Below, one piece after another: positions 7,194 to 38,825 of a DNA stretch of 41,823 nucleotides (its first letter is position 1; the number at the start of each line of letters is the position of its first letter). The position numbers and the translations under genes are program-made. Origin of the DNA: Candidatus Rokuibacteriota bacterium (GTDB lineage Bacteria > Methylomirabilota > Methylomirabilia > Rokubacteriales > CSP1-6); NCBI GenBank assembly GCA_003220195.1, contig QHRT01000087.1:1678-43500 (forward strand), read 5' to 3'. The notes under the pieces were generated by a model. The model was not told the origin of the DNA. It did no database searches and saw only the letters and a program-made list of their open reading frames with translations.

Positions 7194-7658
7194 CTGGAGG
7201 CCGAGCGGCTCGGCCGGCTCGAGGAGACGCTCGGCTATCGGTTTCGTGATCGCGCGCTGCTCATCCGCGCGCTGACCCACTCCTCGTTCGCCAACGAACA
7301 TCCGCCGGGCTCCCACCACGAAAAGCTCGCGTTGCTCGGTGACGCCGTGCTGTCGCTGGTCGTCGCCGAGCATCTCTACGGCGTCGATCCGGACGCTGGC
7401 GTCGGTGACCTCACGTCACGACGCGCGGAGGTCGTCTCCGGCGCCAACCTCGCGCGGTGGGCGGCGGCGGTGGAACTCGGTGAGGCGCTCCGTCTCGGCC
7501 GCGGCGAAGAGCAGACGGGCGGTCGCACGCGCGCGTCGATTCTCGCGACGACGCTCGAGGCCGTGCTCGGCGTCGTCTATCTCGAGGCCGGGCTCGAAGG
7601 CGCCCGCATGGCGATCGCGCGACTCGCCGGCTGGGGAAACGGCGCGTCGGCGGCGTGA
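7194..7658 (+). CDS. rnc: Ribonuclease III-family nuclease domain only (no dsRBD); start codon uncertain
   Basis: The frame is open upstream of TTG 7332: LEETLGYRFRDRALLIRALTHSS...EKLALLGDAVL...LRLGRGEEQTGGR...ILATTLEAVLG. No ATG/GTG/TTG before the conserved N-terminus, so CTG 7194 is assumed. Confidence 0.8.
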   Translation: MEAERLGRLEETLGYRFRDRALLIRALTHSSFANEHPPGSHHEKLALLGDAVLSLVVAEHLYGVDPDAGVGDLTSRRAEVVSGANLARWAAAVELGEALRLGRGEEQTGGRTRASILATTLEAVLGVVYLEAGLEGARMAIARLAGWGNGASAA

Positions 7659-18351: not shown

Positions 18352-18594
18352 GTGCGCGCCCTGCAGGTCGTCGTGCTCGCGGTCTTCGTCGCCCTGATCG
18401 TGTTGTCGCTCGTGAAACGACGGCGCGTGCCCGCGCCTCCGCGTCCGATGATTCCCGACGAGCTCGTGAAGGACCCGGTGTGCCAGACGTACGTCGTACG
18501 GTCGCGCGCGGTCACCGGCGCCTCCGCGAGCGGTCCGCCGTTCTTCTGCAGCGTCGAATGCGCGCAGCGGTACGCCGCCGGCTCCCGCAGCTGA
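18352..18594 (+). CDS. Membrane-anchored YHS/TRASH-domain protein
   Basis: N-terminal TM helix. ELVKDPVCQTYV...FFCSVEC. Confidence 0.8.
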   Translation: MRALQVVVLAVFVALIVLSLVKRRRVPAPPRPMIPDELVKDPVCQTYVVRSRAVTGASASGPPFFCSVECAQRYAAGSRS

Positions 18595-18611
18595 CCGCGC
18601 GCGCCGGCGGC

Positions 18612-19565
18612 GTGGGGCCAGCGGCGTCTTCCCATCCCGACCCCTACCGGAACGTCGACGCGCAGCCGGACGTCGCGCGGATGATCCAGTCACTCGAGGA
18701 GCGCGGACGCACGCGCGCGCAGGCGAGGCTCCGGCGACGCTTTCTCCGGTTCGCGGGAATCCCGAAGGCCGGCCGCGTGCTCGAGGTCGGCTGCGGCACC
18801 GGCGTCGTGCTCCGCGACCTGACGACGCTCGTGGGCCCGCGCGGTCGGGTCGTCGGCGTCGATCGGAGTCGCCGCGTCATCGCCGCGGCGCGGGAGCTGT
18901 GCCGCGCGCATCCGACGATCACCCTCCGTGTCGGCGACGCCGCCCGCCTGCCGTTCCAGTCGGCACGGTTCGATGCGGCGATCGCCGTCACCGTCGTGCT
19001 CCACGTCGCCGATCCGCTGGCGATGGTGAACGAGATGGTGCGCGTGACGCGCCGGGGCGGGGTGATCGGCCTTCAGGACCAGGACTTCGGCACCCTGGCC
19101 GTGACGCACCCCGATCGCGAGCTGACCGATCGCATCCTCCGTGGCGTCGCCGCCCACGTCTACGAGGAACCGCACAGCGGACGGCGGCTGCCTGGGCTGC
19201 TGCGTGCCGCCGGGCTCGCCCACGTGAGACTCTTGACCGACGTCTACCAGGACACTGGGCTCGAGCCCTACACGAAGACGTTCCTGCAGCGTCGCGCCGA
19301 GAACGCCGTGCGCTTCGGCATCGTCGATGCCGCGACGGCCGAGCGCTGGCTCGACGGCTTCACGAAGCTCGTCGCCGACGGCGCGTTCGTGATGACGATC
19401 AACTATTACGGCGCCGTCGGTGTTCGCGGCGGCGGCGCGTCGATCGCGCCGACGACCGGCCGCAGGAGAGCGGCCGCTTTCATGCGCGCGCGCCGGTCGG
19501 GTCGGACCGAGCGGAGCGCGAACGGCGCGCGCCGCACCGGGCCCTGGCAGCGGAGAGCTCGCTGA
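18612..19565 (+). CDS. Class I SAM-dependent methyltransferase
   Basis: VLEVGCGTG, GDAARLPF, VTRRGG. Start and the Arg-rich C-terminal tail are uncertain. Confidence 0.82.
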   Translation: MGPAASSHPDPYRNVDAQPDVARMIQSLEERGRTRAQARLRRRFLRFAGIPKAGRVLEVGCGTGVVLRDLTTLVGPRGRVVGVDRSRRVIAAARELCRAHPTITLRVGDAARLPFQSARFDAAIAVTVVLHVADPLAMVNEMVRVTRRGGVIGLQDQDFGTLAVTHPDRELTDRILRGVAAHVYEEPHSGRRLPGLLRAAGLAHVRLLTDVYQDTGLEPYTKTFLQRRAENAVRFGIVDAATAERWLDGFTKLVADGAFVMTINYYGAVGVRGGGASIAPTTGRRRAAAFMRARRSGRTERSANGARRTGPWQRRAR

Positions 19566-20492
19566 TCGCCCGGGCGCCGGCGGTTCGACTTCTCCTCACG
19601 CTGATCGTCCTCGTCGCCACGGTCGGCGGACCCGCCATCGCCGCGCAGCGCTCCGCGGCAGGGACCTGGCGTCCTCGCGTTGCGCCACATCGAGCGGCTC
19701 GTGGCTTTCGGGCCGCGGCCGGCTGGATCGCCGGCCGCCGAGCGCGCGCGCCAGTACATCGCGGCGGAGCTGAAACGGGCGTCCGCCGAGGTGCGCGTCC
19801 AGTCGTTCGAGGCCGACACGCCGCACGGACGGCTGCGGATGGCGAACGTCACCGGCGTGCTCAAGGGCCGCCGGCCCGACGTGATCATGATCGGCGGCCA
19901 CTACGACACGAAGTTCTTCCGGGACTTCGTGTTCGTCGGCGCCAACGACGGCGGCTCGTCGACGGCGCTCCTGCTCGAGCTGGCGCGCGTGCTGGGCGCC
20001 CGGCCGCGCGAGTACACGTACTGGCTCGCGTTCTTCGACGGCGAAGAGGCGCGCGAGCGGTGGTCCGCCACGGACAGCCTCTACGGGTCGCGCCGGATGG
20101 CCGCCGAGCTTCAACGGACGAAAAACCTGCCGCGCGCGATGATCCTCGTCGACATGATCGGCGATCGACACCTCGGCATCCTCCGCGAGGGAGTGTCGAC
20201 GCCGTGGCTCACCGATCTCGTGTGGACCGCGGCGCGGCGGCTCGGCCACCAGTCTCACTTCCTCGCCGAGACGCAGCTGGTCGAAGACGACCACGTGCCG
20301 TTCCTGCGCGCGGGCGTGCCCGCGACGCTGCTGATCGATTTCGACTATCCTCCCTGGCACACTGCGGGGGACACCCTCGACAAGGTTTCCGCCGACAGCC
20401 TGCGCGTCGTCGGCGAAGTCCTGCTGGACGCTTTGCCGTCGATCGAGGAGACCCTCACCCGTGAAGGAGGTGCCGATGCCCCGCGTCACTGA
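19562..20492 (+). CDS. M28 peptidase/glutaminyl cyclase-like protein; signal peptide lies in another frame (break near 19660)
   Basis: GGHYDTK, GANDGGSS, FDGEE, DMIGD, EDDHVPF, WHTAGDT in 19680-20492. The hydrophobic leader VRLLLTLIVLVATVGG is in a different frame. Confidence 0.8.
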
Positions 20493-21021
20493 GATCGTCG
20501 ACCCCGGGAACGATCCGATCCTGCGCGACGTCTTCGAGAAGGAGACGGAAGCGTTCGGGTTCGTGTTCAACACGACGAAAGTCCAGGCGCACACGCCGGT
20601 CATCCTGAGAGCCGCCAAGCAGCTCTCGGCCGCCGTGGAGCGCTCCGGGCTCCTGCCGGCCGAGCTGCGCTCGCTCGTCTATCTCCGCGTCGCGCTGATC
20701 AACGGCTGTCCCTTCTGAATCGACATCAATGCATCCCGTGGGATGCAAGCCGGGGCGTCGGACGAGAAGATCCGCCAGGTGGAGCGCGCGGCCGAGAGCG
20801 ACCTCTATTCCGAACCCGAGCGAGCGGCGCTCGCGTTCGCGGAAGCGATGACGATCACCGGCCACCGCGTGACCGACGAGCTCTTCGCGCGTGTGCGCAA
20901 CCATTTCTCGGAGCCGCAGGTGGTGGAGCTGGCCGCCGCGGTGGCCCTCGAGAACTTCCGGTCGAAGTTCAACACGGCGTTCGGCATCGAGGCGCAGGGA
21001 TTCTGCGTGCTCCAGCACTGA
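20476..21021 (+). CDS. AhpD/carboxymuconolactone decarboxylase-like probable selenoprotein (CxxU)
   Basis: ORFs 20461-20718 and 20743-21021 share a frame: RVALINGCPF-TGA-IDINASRG...YSEPERAALAFAEAMT. AAGGAGG RBS. Hairpin 11 nt after the TGA. Confidence 0.85.
20730..20747 (+). promoter_or_regulatory. Candidate bacterial SECIS hairpin
   Basis: TGCATCC-CGTG-GGATGCA, a perfect 7 bp stem with a GU-containing loop, 11 nt downstream of in-frame TGA 20716-20718. Confidence 0.7.
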
Positions 21022-21028
21022 GAGCGTC

Positions 21029-21388
21029 ATGACGGATCTTCAGGTAGACGTCTACGGCGTCAATCTCGTGGTCCGACTCGTCCCGGAGCGGGACGTCGCC
21101 GTGCAGCTCAGGTGCCCCAAGGGCGCGGTGATTCGCTACGGCGAGGTCGTGAGCCGCGGCGACGGGTTCGACGCGGACGGGAAAGTGTTTCGCGCGATGC
21201 CGTACGCCCAGGCGATCGTCGTCTTCGAAGAGGATGGTGCCGAGCCCACGGGCCATGCGTTCATGCATGCGGGGCGGGAATACCGGCTCATCGCCGTCGA
21301 CGACGTGCTGGTCGCGTTTCCGCCTCGCTGGTCACCGGCCGAGACGAGGCGCCCGTCGCGCGGTCAGGGGGTCGAGCCGTCGGCCTGA
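21029..21388 (+). CDS. Hypothetical protein, divergent GroES/Cpn10-like
   Basis: GEVVSRGDG...GKVFRAMP...VVFEE...GREYRLIAVDDVLV resembles the GroES pattern by eye. Confidence 0.6.
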   Translation: MTDLQVDVYGVNLVVRLVPERDVAVQLRCPKGAVIRYGEVVSRGDGFDADGKVFRAMPYAQAIVVFEEDGAEPTGHAFMHAGREYRLIAVDDVLVAFPPRWSPAETRRPSRGQGVEPSA

Positions 21389-21396
21389 TCGGCCGA

Positions 21397-22158
21397 CTAC
21401 AGCTGGTAGACCTTGTCCTGCTCGAGGAGGGAAACGCGGCCGCCGCCGATCCGCTCGAGCTCCATGGCGGTCTCTTCGAAGAACGGCGGCTTGATGTGAT
21501 AGATCCACACCGGAGTGTCCGGCGGCAGCTTCGGCAGCTCCTGCGCGATCAACGCCGGGGTCATGTGGCCGGACGCGGTCGCCAGGTCGCCCAGCCGGTT
21601 GGGGAACGTACACTCGAGCAGGATCCCCCGGATGTTGTGATGCGGCCGGATCGCTTTCCACAGGGCCTCGGTGGGTCCGGTGTCGCCGGAGTAGACGAGC
21701 CCGGCCTCGCCGTCATGCACGATGAAGCCACTCGTGGGCACCGTGTGGGTCACGGCGACCGGCGTCACCAGCAGATCGCTGACCACGTGCTCGACGCCCT
21801 CGCCGAGCGCGCGGTACCCGACGGCCGGCGCGCCCGGAGGAATCACGGCAAAATCCGGCCAGACGATGTTGTTGAACACGGCGTGCTTCATGGCGTCGAC
21901 GATCGGCGGCAGGCTGGCGATCGTCACCCGCTGGCCCTCGGCGCAGCAGGCGATGGTCTCGGCGAGGAATGCCAGCCCGGCGACGTGGTCCAGGTGGCAA
22001 TGCGAGACGAGCGCGTGGTCGATCTGGAGCTGTTCCCCGACCGTGAGCGCGGCCGGCACCGAGCCGCCGTCGATCAGGACCCGGTCGTTGACGAGAAAGG
22101 CCGAGGGGCGGTGCGCCAGCCCTTCCCCGCCGAACGCCCCGAGAACCCTGATCTTCAT
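21397..22158 (-). CDS. Metallo-beta-lactamase fold hydrolase, class II cyclic-nucleotide phosphodiesterase-like
   Basis: SHCHLDH, FNNIVWPDF, YSGDTGPT, GHMTP, IYHIKP. Confidence 0.85.
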   Translation of the reverse strand: MKIRVLGAFGGEGLAHRPSAFLVNDRVLIDGGSVPAALTVGEQLQIDHALVSHCHLDHVAGLAFLAETIACCAEGQRVTIASLPPIVDAMKHAVFNNIVWPDFAVIPPGAPAVGYRALGEGVEHVVSDLLVTPVAVTHTVPTSGFIVHDGEAGLVYSGDTGPTEALWKAIRPHHNIRGILLECTFPNRLGDLATASGHMTPALIAQELPKLPPDTPVWIYHIKPPFFEETAMELERIGGGRVSLLEQDKVYQL

Positions 22159-22216
22159 GTGTGTTCGCGGATACTAGCATAAGTCTTGACAGGATCGCCG
22201 GGCGTAGAATCTGGTG

Positions 22217-22888
22217 ATGCCCGGCGACGAGTTCGACTTTCCGACGATGGCGCGCGCCCTGATTCTCGGCGACCGGGAAACGGTCGCTCGAAAAACGCAG
22301 GAGGGGCTCGCGCTCTCGATGGATCCCAAGACCCTCATCTTCAAGGGATTGATCCCCGGCATGGACGTCGTCGGGGAGAAGTTCCGCCGGAACGAGTACT
22401 ACGTGCCCCAGGTGCTGCTGTCCGCGCGCGCCATGTATGCGGGCCTCGACCTCCTGAAGCCGCTCATCACGGCCTCGGCGCGCGCCGGCGACTATCTCGG
22501 CGTGGTGGTCATCGGCACCGCGCAGGGCGACCTCCACGACATCGGCAAGAACCTGGTCGCGATGATGCTGGAAGGGGCCGGCTTCAAGGTCGTGAACCTC
22601 GGACGCGACGTCGCCCCGGAGAAATTCGTCGCCGCCGTGCAGGAGCACGGGGCCAACATCGTCGGGATCTCGGCCTTGATGACGACCACCATGCCGGGAA
22701 TGAAGCGGACGATCGACGCGCTCGTCAAAGCCGGCGTTCGCGACCGCGTCAAGGTCATGGTCGGAGGCGCGCCGGTGAGCCAGGCGTTTGCCGACGAGAT
22801 CGGCGCCGACGGCTACGCGCGAGACTCGACGCTCGCCGTGCTAAAGGCGAAGGCGCTGCTGGGCGTCGCGGAAGGTGTCGGGCGGTGA
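22217..22888 (+). CDS. Corrinoid (B12-binding) protein, cap plus B12 domain
   Basis: GLIPGMDVVGEKF, GDLHDIGKNLV, SALMTTT, VMVGGAP. Confidence 0.93.
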   Translation: MPGDEFDFPTMARALILGDRETVARKTQEGLALSMDPKTLIFKGLIPGMDVVGEKFRRNEYYVPQVLLSARAMYAGLDLLKPLITASARAGDYLGVVVIGTAQGDLHDIGKNLVAMMLEGAGFKVVNLGRDVAPEKFVAAVQEHGANIVGISALMTTTMPGMKRTIDALVKAGVRDRVKVMVGGAPVSQAFADEIGADGYARDSTLAVLKAKALLGVAEGVGR

Positions 22889-23006
22889 AACATCGGCTGC
22901 CGATGTCGAGGCGCGCCACGGCTCCGCCGGGGCGTGTCCGAGCGTTGGGGGTCTGGGGGCCATTACGGGCGCGTCCGCGCGCCCCTCGGGGCCCCCAGGA
23001 CGATCG

Positions 23007-23921
23007 ATGAAACATCGCGGATGGGAAGTCGTCGAGCGCGTCCGGGCCGGCGAGATGCTCGTGTTCGACGGCGGCTACGGCACCATGCTGTTCGCGGCAG
23101 GACTGCTGAACGGCGCGTGTCCCGAGCTCTGGAACGACACGCACGCCGACGTCGTGCGCGAGATCCATCGTGGGTATTTCGAAGCGGGGTCGGCGATCGT
23201 CGAGACCAACACGTTCGGAGGCTCGCGGCTCAAGCTCAACGAGTACCAGCTCGGTGAGCGAACGCGCGAGCTGAACGAACGAGGCGCGCGCCTGGTGAGA
23301 TCCGTCGCGCCGGCCGGCGGCTATGTCGCGGGCTCGATCGGACCCACGAGCCGCCTGCCCGCGGAGTACGAGCCGCTCGGCGACACGACCGACGAGGAGT
23401 ACGTCGAGACGTTCCGCGAGCAAGCGGAAGCGCTCGCCGAGGGGGGCGTCGATCTCTTCGCGGTGGAGACGATGATGTTCCCGCAAGAGGCGTTCGCCGC
23501 CATCCGCGCGTGCAAGCAGGTGGCGGACCTTCCGGTGATGGCGACGATGTTCTTCCAGTACGAGGAGCTGCACGACCGCGATCGCACGATGTGGGGCGAA
23601 AGCCCGGCGAAGGTCGCGAAGAATCTCCGGGAGGCCGGCGCCGACGTCGTCGGCATGAATTGCGGGCGCGGCCCTGACCGCGCGATCGTCATCATCCGCG
23701 AGATGCGCGCTGCGACCGAGACGCCACTCGTCGCGTACCCGAACGCGGGCCTGCCGATCACGACCGGAGATCGCGTGACCTACGAGCTCGGTCCGGAGCA
23801 GATGGCGCGAGACTACCCGGCGCTGCTCGACGCGGGCGCCTCGATCGTCGGCGCGTGCTGCGGCTCCGGCCCCGAGCACATCCGAAAGATCGCCGAGGTC
23901 GTTCGCGCGCGCCGGAAGTGA
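23007..23921 (+). CDS. Homocysteine S-methyltransferase family protein (stand-alone MetH Hcy domain)
   Basis: FDGGYGTML, ETNTFGG, GMNCG, PNAGLP, GACCG zinc ligands. Confidence 0.92.
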   Translation: MKHRGWEVVERVRAGEMLVFDGGYGTMLFAAGLLNGACPELWNDTHADVVREIHRGYFEAGSAIVETNTFGGSRLKLNEYQLGERTRELNERGARLVRSVAPAGGYVAGSIGPTSRLPAEYEPLGDTTDEEYVETFREQAEALAEGGVDLFAVETMMFPQEAFAAIRACKQVADLPVMATMFFQYEELHDRDRTMWGESPAKVAKNLREAGADVVGMNCGRGPDRAIVIIREMRAATETPLVAYPNAGLPITTGDRVTYELGPEQMARDYPALLDAGASIVGACCGSGPEHIRKIAEVVRARRK

Positions 23922-36915: not shown

Positions 36916-36942
36916 CGTCCCGTATTCCCTGACGACGCGAGC

Positions 36943-36971
36943 ACGGGCCAGCCGGTCATCGGCTGGCCCGT
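36943..36971. terminator. Hairpin between convergent genes
   Basis: acgggccagccg-gtcat-cggctggcccgt, 12 bp perfect stem. Confidence 0.7.
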
Positions 36972-36977
36972 CGTGTT

Positions 36978-38825
36978 TCAGGCGGGCGTTCCGCTCGCGT
37001 CCGAGAAGATTCGCTCGTAGCGGCCGTAGTCCCGCGCCGCGTCGGCGTCGGAGCGCGGCGGGATCTCGCAGGACGTCGACAGGATGAAGGCGGAGCGCCG
37101 CGCCGCCGTGTCGATGCACCGGCGGACGTCGGCTTCCATCGCTTCCTTGCTCGTTTTCTCGAAGCGCGTCGCGTCGACGTTGCCGATGGCGACGGCACGG
37201 CCCTGCGCGACCTCGACGAACCGTTTGAGCTGGTCGACGTGCAGCGTCGGGTCGGCCTGCTGATCCAGGTCGAAGGAGATGGTCGTGAACCCGCAGGTGA
37301 TCAGGTCGTCGTAGATCGGGTAGGTCGTGCCGCAGATGTGCGTCGTGACGCCGACCTTCTTCGCCTTGAAGTGGTCGACCAGCTCCTTGTGATAGGGCGC
37401 GATGAAGTCGCGATAGTTGTCCGGTGAGATCAGGCTGATCGACGCCGTGGGCTCCGAGAACGAGAGCCCGATGCCGGTCTTGACGATCGCGTCCCCCCAC
37501 AGCTTGCAGAAGTCGGTCGTCACGCGCATCAGCGCGTGGATGAAGTCGGGGTCCTCGAACGTGTCGAGCAGCATGACCTCGGGATTGCGCATCAGCATCG
37601 CGATCGTCCACGGGCCCACGGCGACCGCGCCGGTGGCCGTGGGAAGCTTCGCGGCCACGAGCGCCTCACACTGCTCGAGGAATCCCGGCAGCCGCGCCGT
37701 CCGGTAGGGGTCGGGCATCGCGATCGTCGCGAGCCGTGTCTTGTCCTCGGCCAGCACGTGCTCGTCGATCGACGGCACGACGTAGTCGGAATACTTGACG
37801 CCACACCCGAAGGCCTCGGCCTCCTTGGCCAGGTCGTTGTAGGCGAGCACGACGTCCGGCTGGTAGCGTTCGTAATAGTTCAGCATCGCGGTGATCGCGC
37901 GCGGCACGTTCGTGCAGTACTCCTCGATCGAGAGCCCGTCGAGCGTTCCGGCGAACGACGCGACGATCGGATAGGTCGGCACGCGGTCGGCGAACGAGCG
38001 CTTGTAGGCGGCCACCACGCGGTCGCGCGGGGTGTAGGCGTTGGTGCCCTTCTCGGCGTCCCACAGGCGGTTGGCTTCCATGTACTTGGGCGGCAGCTTG
38101 GCCTCGTACTCCATGAACTGCGTGATCGGGTAGCGGATCCCGCCGGCGTGCGTGCCGCGCAATCCCTCGATGATCTCCTCCATCCGATGCCACGGCACCG
38201 TGAACGCCATCTCGTGGTCCTGCGTCTGCCCGAAGATCCGGTCGCCGGAACACGGCAGGATCATCTGTGGCTCGTCGGTCCGCATCGTCGTCACGATGAT
38301 GTCCGCGCACGCGACGCGCCCGCCGAACGAGGACGTGAGCTTCCCGCCGCGCTTCCACAAGGCCGCCTGGGTGAGGCGCATCACCTGGGCCGCGTTGCCG
38401 TAGATGCACACGAGGTGCGGCTCGAACGTCGCCCGATCGAGAGGAGCGACGAGCAGGGCGTGGTACTGTCCCGGCGGAAATCGATCGATCGCCGCCTCGG
38501 ACCGCTGCCCCGCCTCCTTCGTCTCCGTGTACATCCCTTCGCAGAGCGTGCCCGAGGCGAAGAGGTGGTTCGGCTTCTCGAACCCGACCGCCGCGATGCC
38601 GAGCGCGCAGATGTGATCCTCGCGCGTCAAAGCGATCGTCCACCCGTACCGGCGCGCCATGTCGATGACCTGGCAATTCATGCTGAGCTTCTTGAAGTCC
38701 CGCGCCGGCCGGCGCGCCCGCTCGGGGATGGGCTCGTCGGGCCGCAGCATTCGAATGGCGACGGGAAACGTTTGCGGCCGGATGTACGTCTGAAGCTCAC
38801 GATCCGCGGTCGTCGTGTCGATCAT
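36978..38825 (-). CDS. DUF169 domain fused to an MtaA/CmuA-like (UroD superfamily) methyltransferase domain
   Basis: N-half: FPVAIR, MNCQ, CADI, PCSGDR. C-half: ADRVP, EAEAFGC, GPWTIA, EPTAS, HICG, GNVD, STSCEIP. Confidence 0.82.
   Translation of the reverse strand: MIDTTTADRELQTYIRPQTFPVAIRMLRPDEPIPERARRPARDFKKLSMNCQVIDMARRYGWTIALTREDHICALGIAAVGFEKPNHLFASGTLCEGMYTETKEAGQRSEAAIDRFPPGQYHALLVAPLDRATFEPHLVCIYGNAAQVMRLTQAALWKRGGKLTSSFGGRVACADIIVTTMRTDEPQMILPCSGDRIFGQTQDHEMAFTVPWHRMEEIIEGLRGTHAGGIRYPITQFMEYEAKLPPKYMEANRLWDAEKGTNAYTPRDRVVAAYKRSFADRVPTYPIVASFAGTLDGLSIEEYCTNVPRAITAMLNYYERYQPDVVLAYNDLAKEAEAFGCGVKYSDYVVPSIDEHVLAEDKTRLATIAMPDPYRTARLPGFLEQCEALVAAKLPTATGAVAVGPWTIAMLMRNPEVMLLDTFEDPDFIHALMRVTTDFCKLWGDAIVKTGIGLSFSEPTASISLISPDNYRDFIAPYHKELVDHFKAKKVGVTTHICGTTYPIYDDLITCGFTTISFDLDQQADPTLHVDQLKRFVEVAQGRAVAIGNVDATRFEKTSKEAMEADVRRCIDTAARRSAFILSTSCEIPPRSDADAARDYGRYERIFSDASGTPA

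Follow-up and report, generated by a model that had tools for sequence, protein, structure and literature searches.

A very probable selenoprotein gene of the AhpD/CMD fold, cut in two by an in-frame TGA in a soil Rokubacteria genome

Results and discussion

A single reading frame across an internal TGA

The window examined here is a stretch of 41,823 nt from Candidatus Rokuibacteriota bacterium (assembly GCA_003220195.1, contig QHRT01000087.1, positions 1,678 to 43,500 of the forward strand), and all coordinates below count from its first letter unless a contig or locus is named. On its plus strand, a single frame of 181 codons runs from an ATG at 20476 to a true stop, TGA, at 21019-21021, and its sole internal stop is the TGA of codon 81 (20716-20718), which directly follows residues ...ALINGCPF. 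From the sequence comparisons set out below, we conclude that this is very probably a genuine selenoprotein gene, in which the internal UGA would be decoded as selenocysteine (Sec) through SelB and a selenocysteine insertion sequence (SECIS) just downstream. An initial annotation of the same DNA had proposed that two apparent open reading frames (ORFs) are one frame cut by TGA at codon 81 after NGCPF, and that a perfect 7-bp stem with a CGUG loop begins 11 nt past the UGA. Every detail of the frame is confirmed in the sequence, as is the hairpin, at 20730-20747. The features of the gene are as follows.

20476..21021, plus strand: AhpD/CMD-fold gene, complete, read as a selenoprotein gene (single frame, Pfam CMD domain across the TGA, AlphaFold2 model)
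20463..20470, plus strand: Shine-Dalgarno-like GAAGGAGG, 5 nt ahead of the ATG (read from the sequence; putative function)
20707..20718, plus strand: predicted redox motif Cys78-Pro-Phe-Sec81 (TGT CCC TTC TGA), with the Sec codon at 20716-20718 (TGA in orthologs, alignment A4, structures 2gmy and 2ijc)
20730..20747, plus strand: bacterial SECIS hairpin, stem 20730-20736 with 20741-20747, loop CGUG at 20737-20740 (folds, pairing, covariation)

The read-through product has 181 residues, and its Pfam CMD domain (PF02627) spans the TGA, covering residues 44-124 (E 8e-16, 58.2 bits against a cut-off of 23). Proteins of the orthologous loci start with MPRV and finish at the same end position, where the stop is TAG, TAA or TGA.

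The TGA is conserved and coding continues on both sides of it

Orthologs were gathered in three sets: a near-relative set of 41 genomes (the 40 nearest and the window's own), in which places with E <= 1e-50 were taken; a named set of the best 80 of 429 relatives, almost all of them metagenome-assembled genomes (MAGs) of Rokubacteria/Methylomirabilota, at 65-78% identity; and an even sample of 201 genomes across the phylum, with a match threshold of E <= 1e-40. The sets overlap, sharing species collections and related genomes, and their counts are not independent of one another. All 27 places in the near-relative set have exactly one in-frame TGA, at the same codon and in the context GCPF*[IMV]D; the named orthologs have it at the position of codon 81 in 80 of 80; and in the phylum sample, where 109 of the 201 genomes gave a match, one TGA is present in 109 of 109. 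By family, a match was found in 92 of 125 genomes of f1, 15 of 16 of f4 and the single genome of f13, and in no genome of the other nine families of this sample (for example 0/18, 0/15 and 0/15), confining the ortholog group, among the genomes searched, to two or three families of the Rokubacteria/Methylomirabilota. No ortholog among those examined (the sets of 27, 80 and 109) has Cys at the Sec codon. Judged by sequence, this is a distinct ortholog group with the predicted signature GCPFU-IDINASRG, always with Sec.

Seventy-eight of the 80 named orthologs have a readable end, the other two leaving their contig, and they terminate in TAG (53), TGA (20) or TAA (5). Because TGA ends the window gene and these 20 orthologs while the others end in TAG or TAA, TGA works as a normal stop codon in this lineage and has not been reassigned. 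Coding is equally well kept before and after the internal TGA: over the 79 orthologs without gaps, identity to the window protein is 72.5% across the 80 upstream codons and 72.2% across the 98 downstream codons, and differences at the third codon position dominate both upstream (2689 versus 1179 and 997) and downstream (3062 versus 1512 and 1312). Purifying selection acts on both sides of codon 81. The homologues are thus conserved across the UGA and not independently split, and the equal identity together with the third-position dominance excludes both a pseudogene and a dead downstream half.

Environmental sequence bears on the same codon. In assembled (Logan) contigs from three soil DNA runs of three studies and one metatranscriptome run, only TGA is seen at 20716-20718, with synonymous variants right beside it (20709 T>C, changing TGT to TGC, and 20712 C>A, changing CCC to CCA); neither TGC nor TGT occurs at 20716 in the contigs of the four runs, which lends modest support to a true TGA. 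These contigs are short and break around 20712-20740, and among the pieces listed one spans the TGA with at least 31 letters on each side; it comes from a relative, in the RNA run X19. The same run holds one contig of 151 nt identical to 20496-20646, in a library that may include carried-over DNA.

A SECIS hairpin kept by compensatory change

The hairpin pairs UGCAUCC (20730-20736) perfectly with GGAUGCA (20741-20747) over seven base pairs, places its apical loop 18 nt from the UGA, appears in both the minimum free energy (MFE) and the centroid folds, and has a free energy of -9.3 kcal/mol when folded alone. The consensus for bacterial SECIS elements, as section 5 of a recent review gives it, comprises an apical loop of 3-9 nt on an upper stem of 4-16 bp, a G at loop position 1 or 2, usually with G or U after it, a distance of 16-37 nt from UGA to loop, and an MFE of -7.5 kcal/mol or below (PMC13188914). 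With its 4-nt loop, G at position 2 followed by U, 7-bp stem, 18-nt distance and -9.3 kcal/mol, the window hairpin lies within all four constraints of the published model.

Its pairing is maintained among relatives. Across 26 orthologs (24 distinct), 97% of the cells are paired and two of the seven pairs covary (C-G/U-A and G-C/U-A), while every slid register is at most 60% paired. Across 11 paralogs, whose proteins are 30-52% identical, 96% of the cells are paired and six of the seven pairs covary, a covariation score reached in none of 500 shuffles; the paralog loops have 3 nt (GUG, GUC, GGA, GGC or GUU). Pairs were counted in two separate gapless alignments (A2 and A3), the joint MAFFT alignment (A1) having shifted the paralogs with 3-nt loops out of register. 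The standard hairpin is found in 73 of the 80 named orthologs. The other seven (L086, L104, L106, L112, L116, L129 and L133) have UCCCGC-GGUCU-GCGGGA instead, starting 4 nt further downstream, and this replacement is a case of SECIS turnover inside one ortholog group.

Constraint on the RNA is also visible at synonymous sites. Among cases that retain the amino acid, no synonymous change is seen in the stem codons GCA (Ala86) and UCC (Ser87) (0/73 and 0/80, together 0/153), compared with 42 of 80 for the loop codon CGU and 762 of 2145 (35.5%) outside the hairpin.

The genome encodes the machinery for selenocysteine

The window's own genome is that of a soil Rokubacteria, in 598 contigs and 82.8% complete. 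One of its contigs (C265) carries a tRNA-Sec with anticodon TCA (69.7 bits; ARAGORN also finds a tRNA-SeC), selA (586 bits) and selB (375 bits), all within a span of less than 5 kb (C265:8569-13356). A second contig (C540) carries selD (333 bits), which has an in-frame TGA of its own in ...SCAGUASK (L001:1531-1533) and is therefore a second gene of this genome in need of Sec decoding; by its sequence, the selenophosphate synthetase of the genome itself appears to be a selenoprotein. All four components, tRNA-Sec, selA, selB and selD, are thus present, each above its curated cut-off.

The predicted Sec occupies the position of a redox-active Cys

Cys stands exactly at the Sec position in distant homologues. 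Four full-length database proteins (P0063, P0097, P0114 and P0116) read GC[EADS]WC there, and in the solved structures 2gmy (Atu0492) and 2ijc (PA0269) an INGC-x-x-C motif aligns with INGCPFU, the Sec corresponding to the second Cys of CxxC. An alignment of 37 sequences (A4) has just two invariant columns, that of Sec/Cys and that of Glu151, and Cys78, Gly77 and Asp83 are nearly invariant. Four residues past Sec81 (C78-P-F-U81-I-D-I-N85) the window protein has Asn85, as do 80 of 80 orthologs, where 2gmy and 2ijc have His, and it therefore departs from the classical CxxCxxxH motif. Near the C-terminus, Cys177 (QGFC, window 21004-21006) is shared by the orthologs and the four Cys homologues, and might be a third redox residue.

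The AlphaFold2 model, built on alignment A4, is one all-helical domain (predicted local distance difference test, pLDDT, 95.5; predicted template modelling score, pTM, 0.90), in which Cys78 lies just ahead of helix 79-91 and Sec81 in the first turn of that helix. In a Foldseek search, every match at E <= 1e-4 belongs to the AhpD/CMD family, with template modelling (TM) scores of 0.70-0.86 normalised to the query; these include the Bmp8 debrominase, PA0269, the AhpD proteins of D. radiodurans (6k40) and S. pneumoniae, 2prr and several 'peroxidase-related' proteins. The probability is 1.00 for at least 16 AhpD/CMD entries, and the fold is the all-helical one of AhpD.

In the AhpD of M. tuberculosis, the second Cys of CxxC, Cys133, is the attacking residue, and His137 occupies the His position of CxxCxxxH within a Glu-Cys-Cys-His relay. 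For the window gene we propose that SelB with Sec-tRNA(Sec) would bind the mRNA hairpin at 20730-20747 and that Sec would be delivered to a ribosome stalled at the UGA, which lies 11 nt ahead of the hairpin. The active-site motif Cys78-Pro-Phe-Sec81 would then be formed at the N-terminus of helix 79-91, with Sec81 standing where the AhpD CxxC has its second, attacking Cys. Sec81 would react with an oxidised substrate, which may be a disulfide, a sulfenate derived from a peroxide or some other electrophile; Cys78 would resolve the adduct to give a Cys78-Sec81 selenenylsulfide, and a cellular reductant would recycle it. The protein is most likely a thiol/selenol oxidoreductase, a redox chemistry that we infer, together with its direction, from the family. 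The 181-residue Sec redox enzyme put forward in the initial annotation is accordingly in line with the conserved TGA, the Cys homologues, the covarying hairpin and the Sec machinery, all of which support it.

Related genomes hold further AhpD/YciW paralogs (L049-L061), each with one in-frame TGA and a hairpin of its own. Three of these (L056-L058) are without the first Cys (A/S-x-x-U), and three others (L059-L061) have a classical CxxUxxxH. In genome G016, seven of the 13 matches have a TGA; the window's own genome showed only the present TGA-bearing copy.

Alternative readings of the interrupted frame

Three other explanations of the internal TGA were weighed. If the gene were a pseudogene, in which a nonsense mutation had struck an AhpD-like gene and left two decaying halves, the frame would be broken under translation table 11 and public gene calls would list only its halves, as is the case. 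The TGA is found at the same codon in 80/80 and 109/109 orthologs at 51-80% identity, however, conservation downstream equals that upstream with third-position changes dominant, and a covarying hairpin follows the TGA, all of which make decay vanishingly improbable. It is also extremely improbable that two separate small genes are translated independently here, one for an N-terminal protein of 80-85 residues and one for a C-terminal protein of 92 residues. An ATG at 20743 could indeed open a 92-residue ORF, and databases contain such halves, but the junction lies inside one Pfam CMD domain (44-124) and inside one confidently modelled AlphaFold2 domain, residues 82-89 between the TGA and that first ATG (IDINASRG) are highly conserved, and the Cys homologues are single chains. 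Read-through of the UGA by something other than Sec, either a near-cognate Trp or Cys or a lineage-wide reassignment of TGA, finds a parallel in a few database proteins with W, G, S or L at the Sec position (P0002-P0006). Such entries are what error-prone reads, or gene calling under a different genetic code, can be expected to yield, and TGA also ends the window gene, 20 of 80 orthologs and the upstream Peptidase_M28 gene (20490-20492). With the complete Sec machinery, including a Sec-containing SelD, a SECIS-type hairpin kept by compensatory change and a redox Cys at this position in homologues, we regard non-Sec read-through as very improbable.

Several observations weigh against decoding of codon 81 as Sec in an AhpD-like enzyme. 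Some concern the hairpin: the window is rich in GC, and of the 915 TGA triplets on its two strands, 18 (2.0%, the present one included) precede an equally good hairpin by chance, counted as an unbroken stem of 7 bp or more within the SECIS loop and spacing rules; the 60 nt past the UGA have no greater fold stability than their shuffled versions (z 0.36); and no Rfam family reaches its gathering threshold anywhere in the window. Given this chance level and z score, we treat the hairpin taken alone as suggestive and have dropped fold energy as an argument, and it is the conservation, the covariation and the frozen synonymous sites that lead us to set chance aside. Others concern the protein, which falls under the NCBIfam cut-offs of both NF053654 (149.3 versus 310 bits) and TIGR01926 (60.5 versus 81.8 bits); with Asn85 for His, moreover, the protein may lack the proton relay of classical AhpD and may act on a substrate other than a peroxiredoxin. 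All the relatives, finally, are MAGs of one lineage, so that the counts are not independent events, and we infer Sec insertion at residue 81 from sequence rather than from selenium seen in the protein. Decoding of codon 81 as Sec by SelB and the hairpin remains, with these points taken in, the reading in which we have high confidence.

Gene neighbourhood

The selenoprotein gene follows two genes on the same strand.

19680..20492, plus strand: Peptidase_M28 gene, context (Pfam PF04389, E 2e-33)
18480..19565, plus strand: S-adenosylmethionine (SAM)-dependent methyltransferase gene, context (Pfam Methyltransf_11/25, E 1e-20)

The end of the M28 gene overlaps the start of the selenoprotein gene by 17 nt, its stop being the TGA at 20490-20492, and the two genes are probably in the same operon. 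An M28 gene lies upstream at 59 of the 80 named ortholog loci, and at 12 of the 13 loci of the window's family among L023-L035; a methyltransferase gene lies upstream at 55 of the 80. Both neighbours are absent at the ortholog loci of the second family. The missing Cys ortholog (none in 109/109), the M28 and methyltransferase genes upstream in 59 and 55 of 80 loci, and the M28 overlap suggest a further reading, in which the orthologs would form a lineage-restricted, Sec-dependent AhpD/YciW subfamily with a dedicated selenol redox step coupled to the M28 and methyltransferase functions, and not serve general peroxide defence. We consider this rather unlikely; if true, such a step could, for example, help to mature or detoxify one particular peptide or small molecule.

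The selenoprotein gene is immediately followed by a 119-codon ORF (21029-21388, plus strand) that has no Pfam match and is adjacent at none of the 80 named ortholog loci. On the minus strand, a gene of the metallo-beta-lactamase fold, class-II phosphodiesterase-like (21397-22158), adjoins the selenoprotein gene; a gene 39-46% identical to it is adjacent, in another arrangement, to the orthologs of the second family (L036-L041). Further along, at 22214-23921 on the plus strand, a gene for a B12-binding (corrinoid) protein shares 14 nt with its neighbour, which encodes a protein with a homocysteine S-methyltransferase domain; together they resemble a pair for corrinoid-dependent methyl transfer.

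Candidates for hidden selenoprotein genes were listed as TGA codons with open frames on both sides and an unbroken downstream stem of 6 bp or more. The window has 16 such sites, and all except the one in the selenoprotein gene look like non-coding GC-rich frames or true stops. The one plausible site among these others, the TGA at 7656-7658, with a 6-bp hairpin and long open frames, is an ordinary stop at which an RNase III-like gene ends, an M50 peptidase gene following in frame. At about 36930-37010, stop codons of both strands lead into a perfect hairpin of 11-12 bp, probably a terminator that works in both directions.

Database annotation of the gene

As the initial annotation had anticipated, gene-calling pipelines split this gene: 109 of the 120 database matches listed cover at most 55% of the query. 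The half entries that were fetched end at ...NGCPF or begin with MDINASRG or MQAGAS just past the TGA. A few full-length entries exist (P0002-P0008), in which the Sec position is filled by G, S, L or W, or some 40-65 residues around it are skipped; they appear to be artefactual, the result of another genetic code, an error in sequencing or a spliced gene model.

The value of the finding lies mainly in annotation. Roughly every second genome sampled from this phylum, a major one in soil and groundwater, has the conserved gene, whose entries in public protein sets are almost wholly fragments or artefactual read-throughs, and no curated model calls the ortholog group at its trusted cut-off. Calling it correctly would add one selenoprotein per genome in a phylum for one MAG of which 63 selenoproteins have been predicted. 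The gene also illustrates cleanly how a bacterial SECIS covaries, one lineage with a replaced hairpin included, and raises no new question for selenium biology.

Comparison with known selenoproteins and AhpD-like enzymes

AhpD-like selenoproteins with a CxxU motif were described from the Sargasso Sea in 2005, with 27 sequences assigned to COG2128 (Zhang, Fomenko & Gladyshev, PMC1088965). In the Global Ocean Sampling (GOS) data, AhpD-like 1 (COG2128, 299 sequences) and AhpD-like 2 (pfam02627, 70 sequences) were among the most abundant selenoprotein families (PMC2398784). The 2026 review names AhpD-like (TIGR01926), CMD-like (PF02627) and several AhpD-related selenoprotein families, and cites Deng et al. 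2026 for the Methylomirabilota MAG predicted to have 63 selenoprotein genes (PMC13188914). With CxxU selenoproteins of this type on record since 2005, the window gene belongs to an already known kind of selenoprotein, sharing with them, as they are described in these sources, a CMD/AhpD domain, a Sec that replaces the second Cys, a SECIS immediately downstream of the UGA and numerous homologues with Cys. It differs in forming a separate ortholog group that scores below the TIGR01926 cut-off, a comparison made with the 2005 and 2008 families by their published descriptions.

Of the curated families, the best-scoring is NF053654 ('GroundWater_YciW', YciW-related (seleno)protein; E 9.5e-44 over residues 2-175), which has the same length, Sec position and kind of hairpin as the window protein. 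True members of NF053654 constitute a paralog clade with the signature NGCEFU-QD[VI]NAAVGS, about 45% identical to the window protein and coexisting with its orthologs in related genomes; one of them (L049) scores 315.2 bits.

The namesake of the fold family, the AhpD of M. tuberculosis (1knc, 1gu9), reduces AhpC through the redox chemistry of its CxxC. It is a weak structural match to the window protein (E 0.3-0.5, TM 0.52-0.58), which does not reproduce the M. tuberculosis relay, having Asn85 at the His position. The best full-length structural match is the Bmp8 debrominase (6ohi, 6ohj; Foldseek E 1e-7, TM 0.83 over 178 columns), a CMD-fold enzyme that uses an active-site Cys for reductive chemistry. 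Its sequence matches with E 1e-11 at 23-24% identity, with Cys where the window protein has Sec, and the entry titles name a C82A mutant; unlike the debrominase, the window protein gave no pointer to halogenated substrates in this analysis. Closest by sequence (E 6e-16 to 1e-14) are Atu0492 (2gmy) and PA0269, the P. aeruginosa AhpD (2ijc, 2o4d, 7xw1), whose structures fit the window model with a root mean square deviation of 1.1-1.2 over 132-139 columns. These proteins, of about 145 residues, are without the N-terminal 40 residues of the window protein, and carry Cys for its Sec and, four residues on, His for its Asn.

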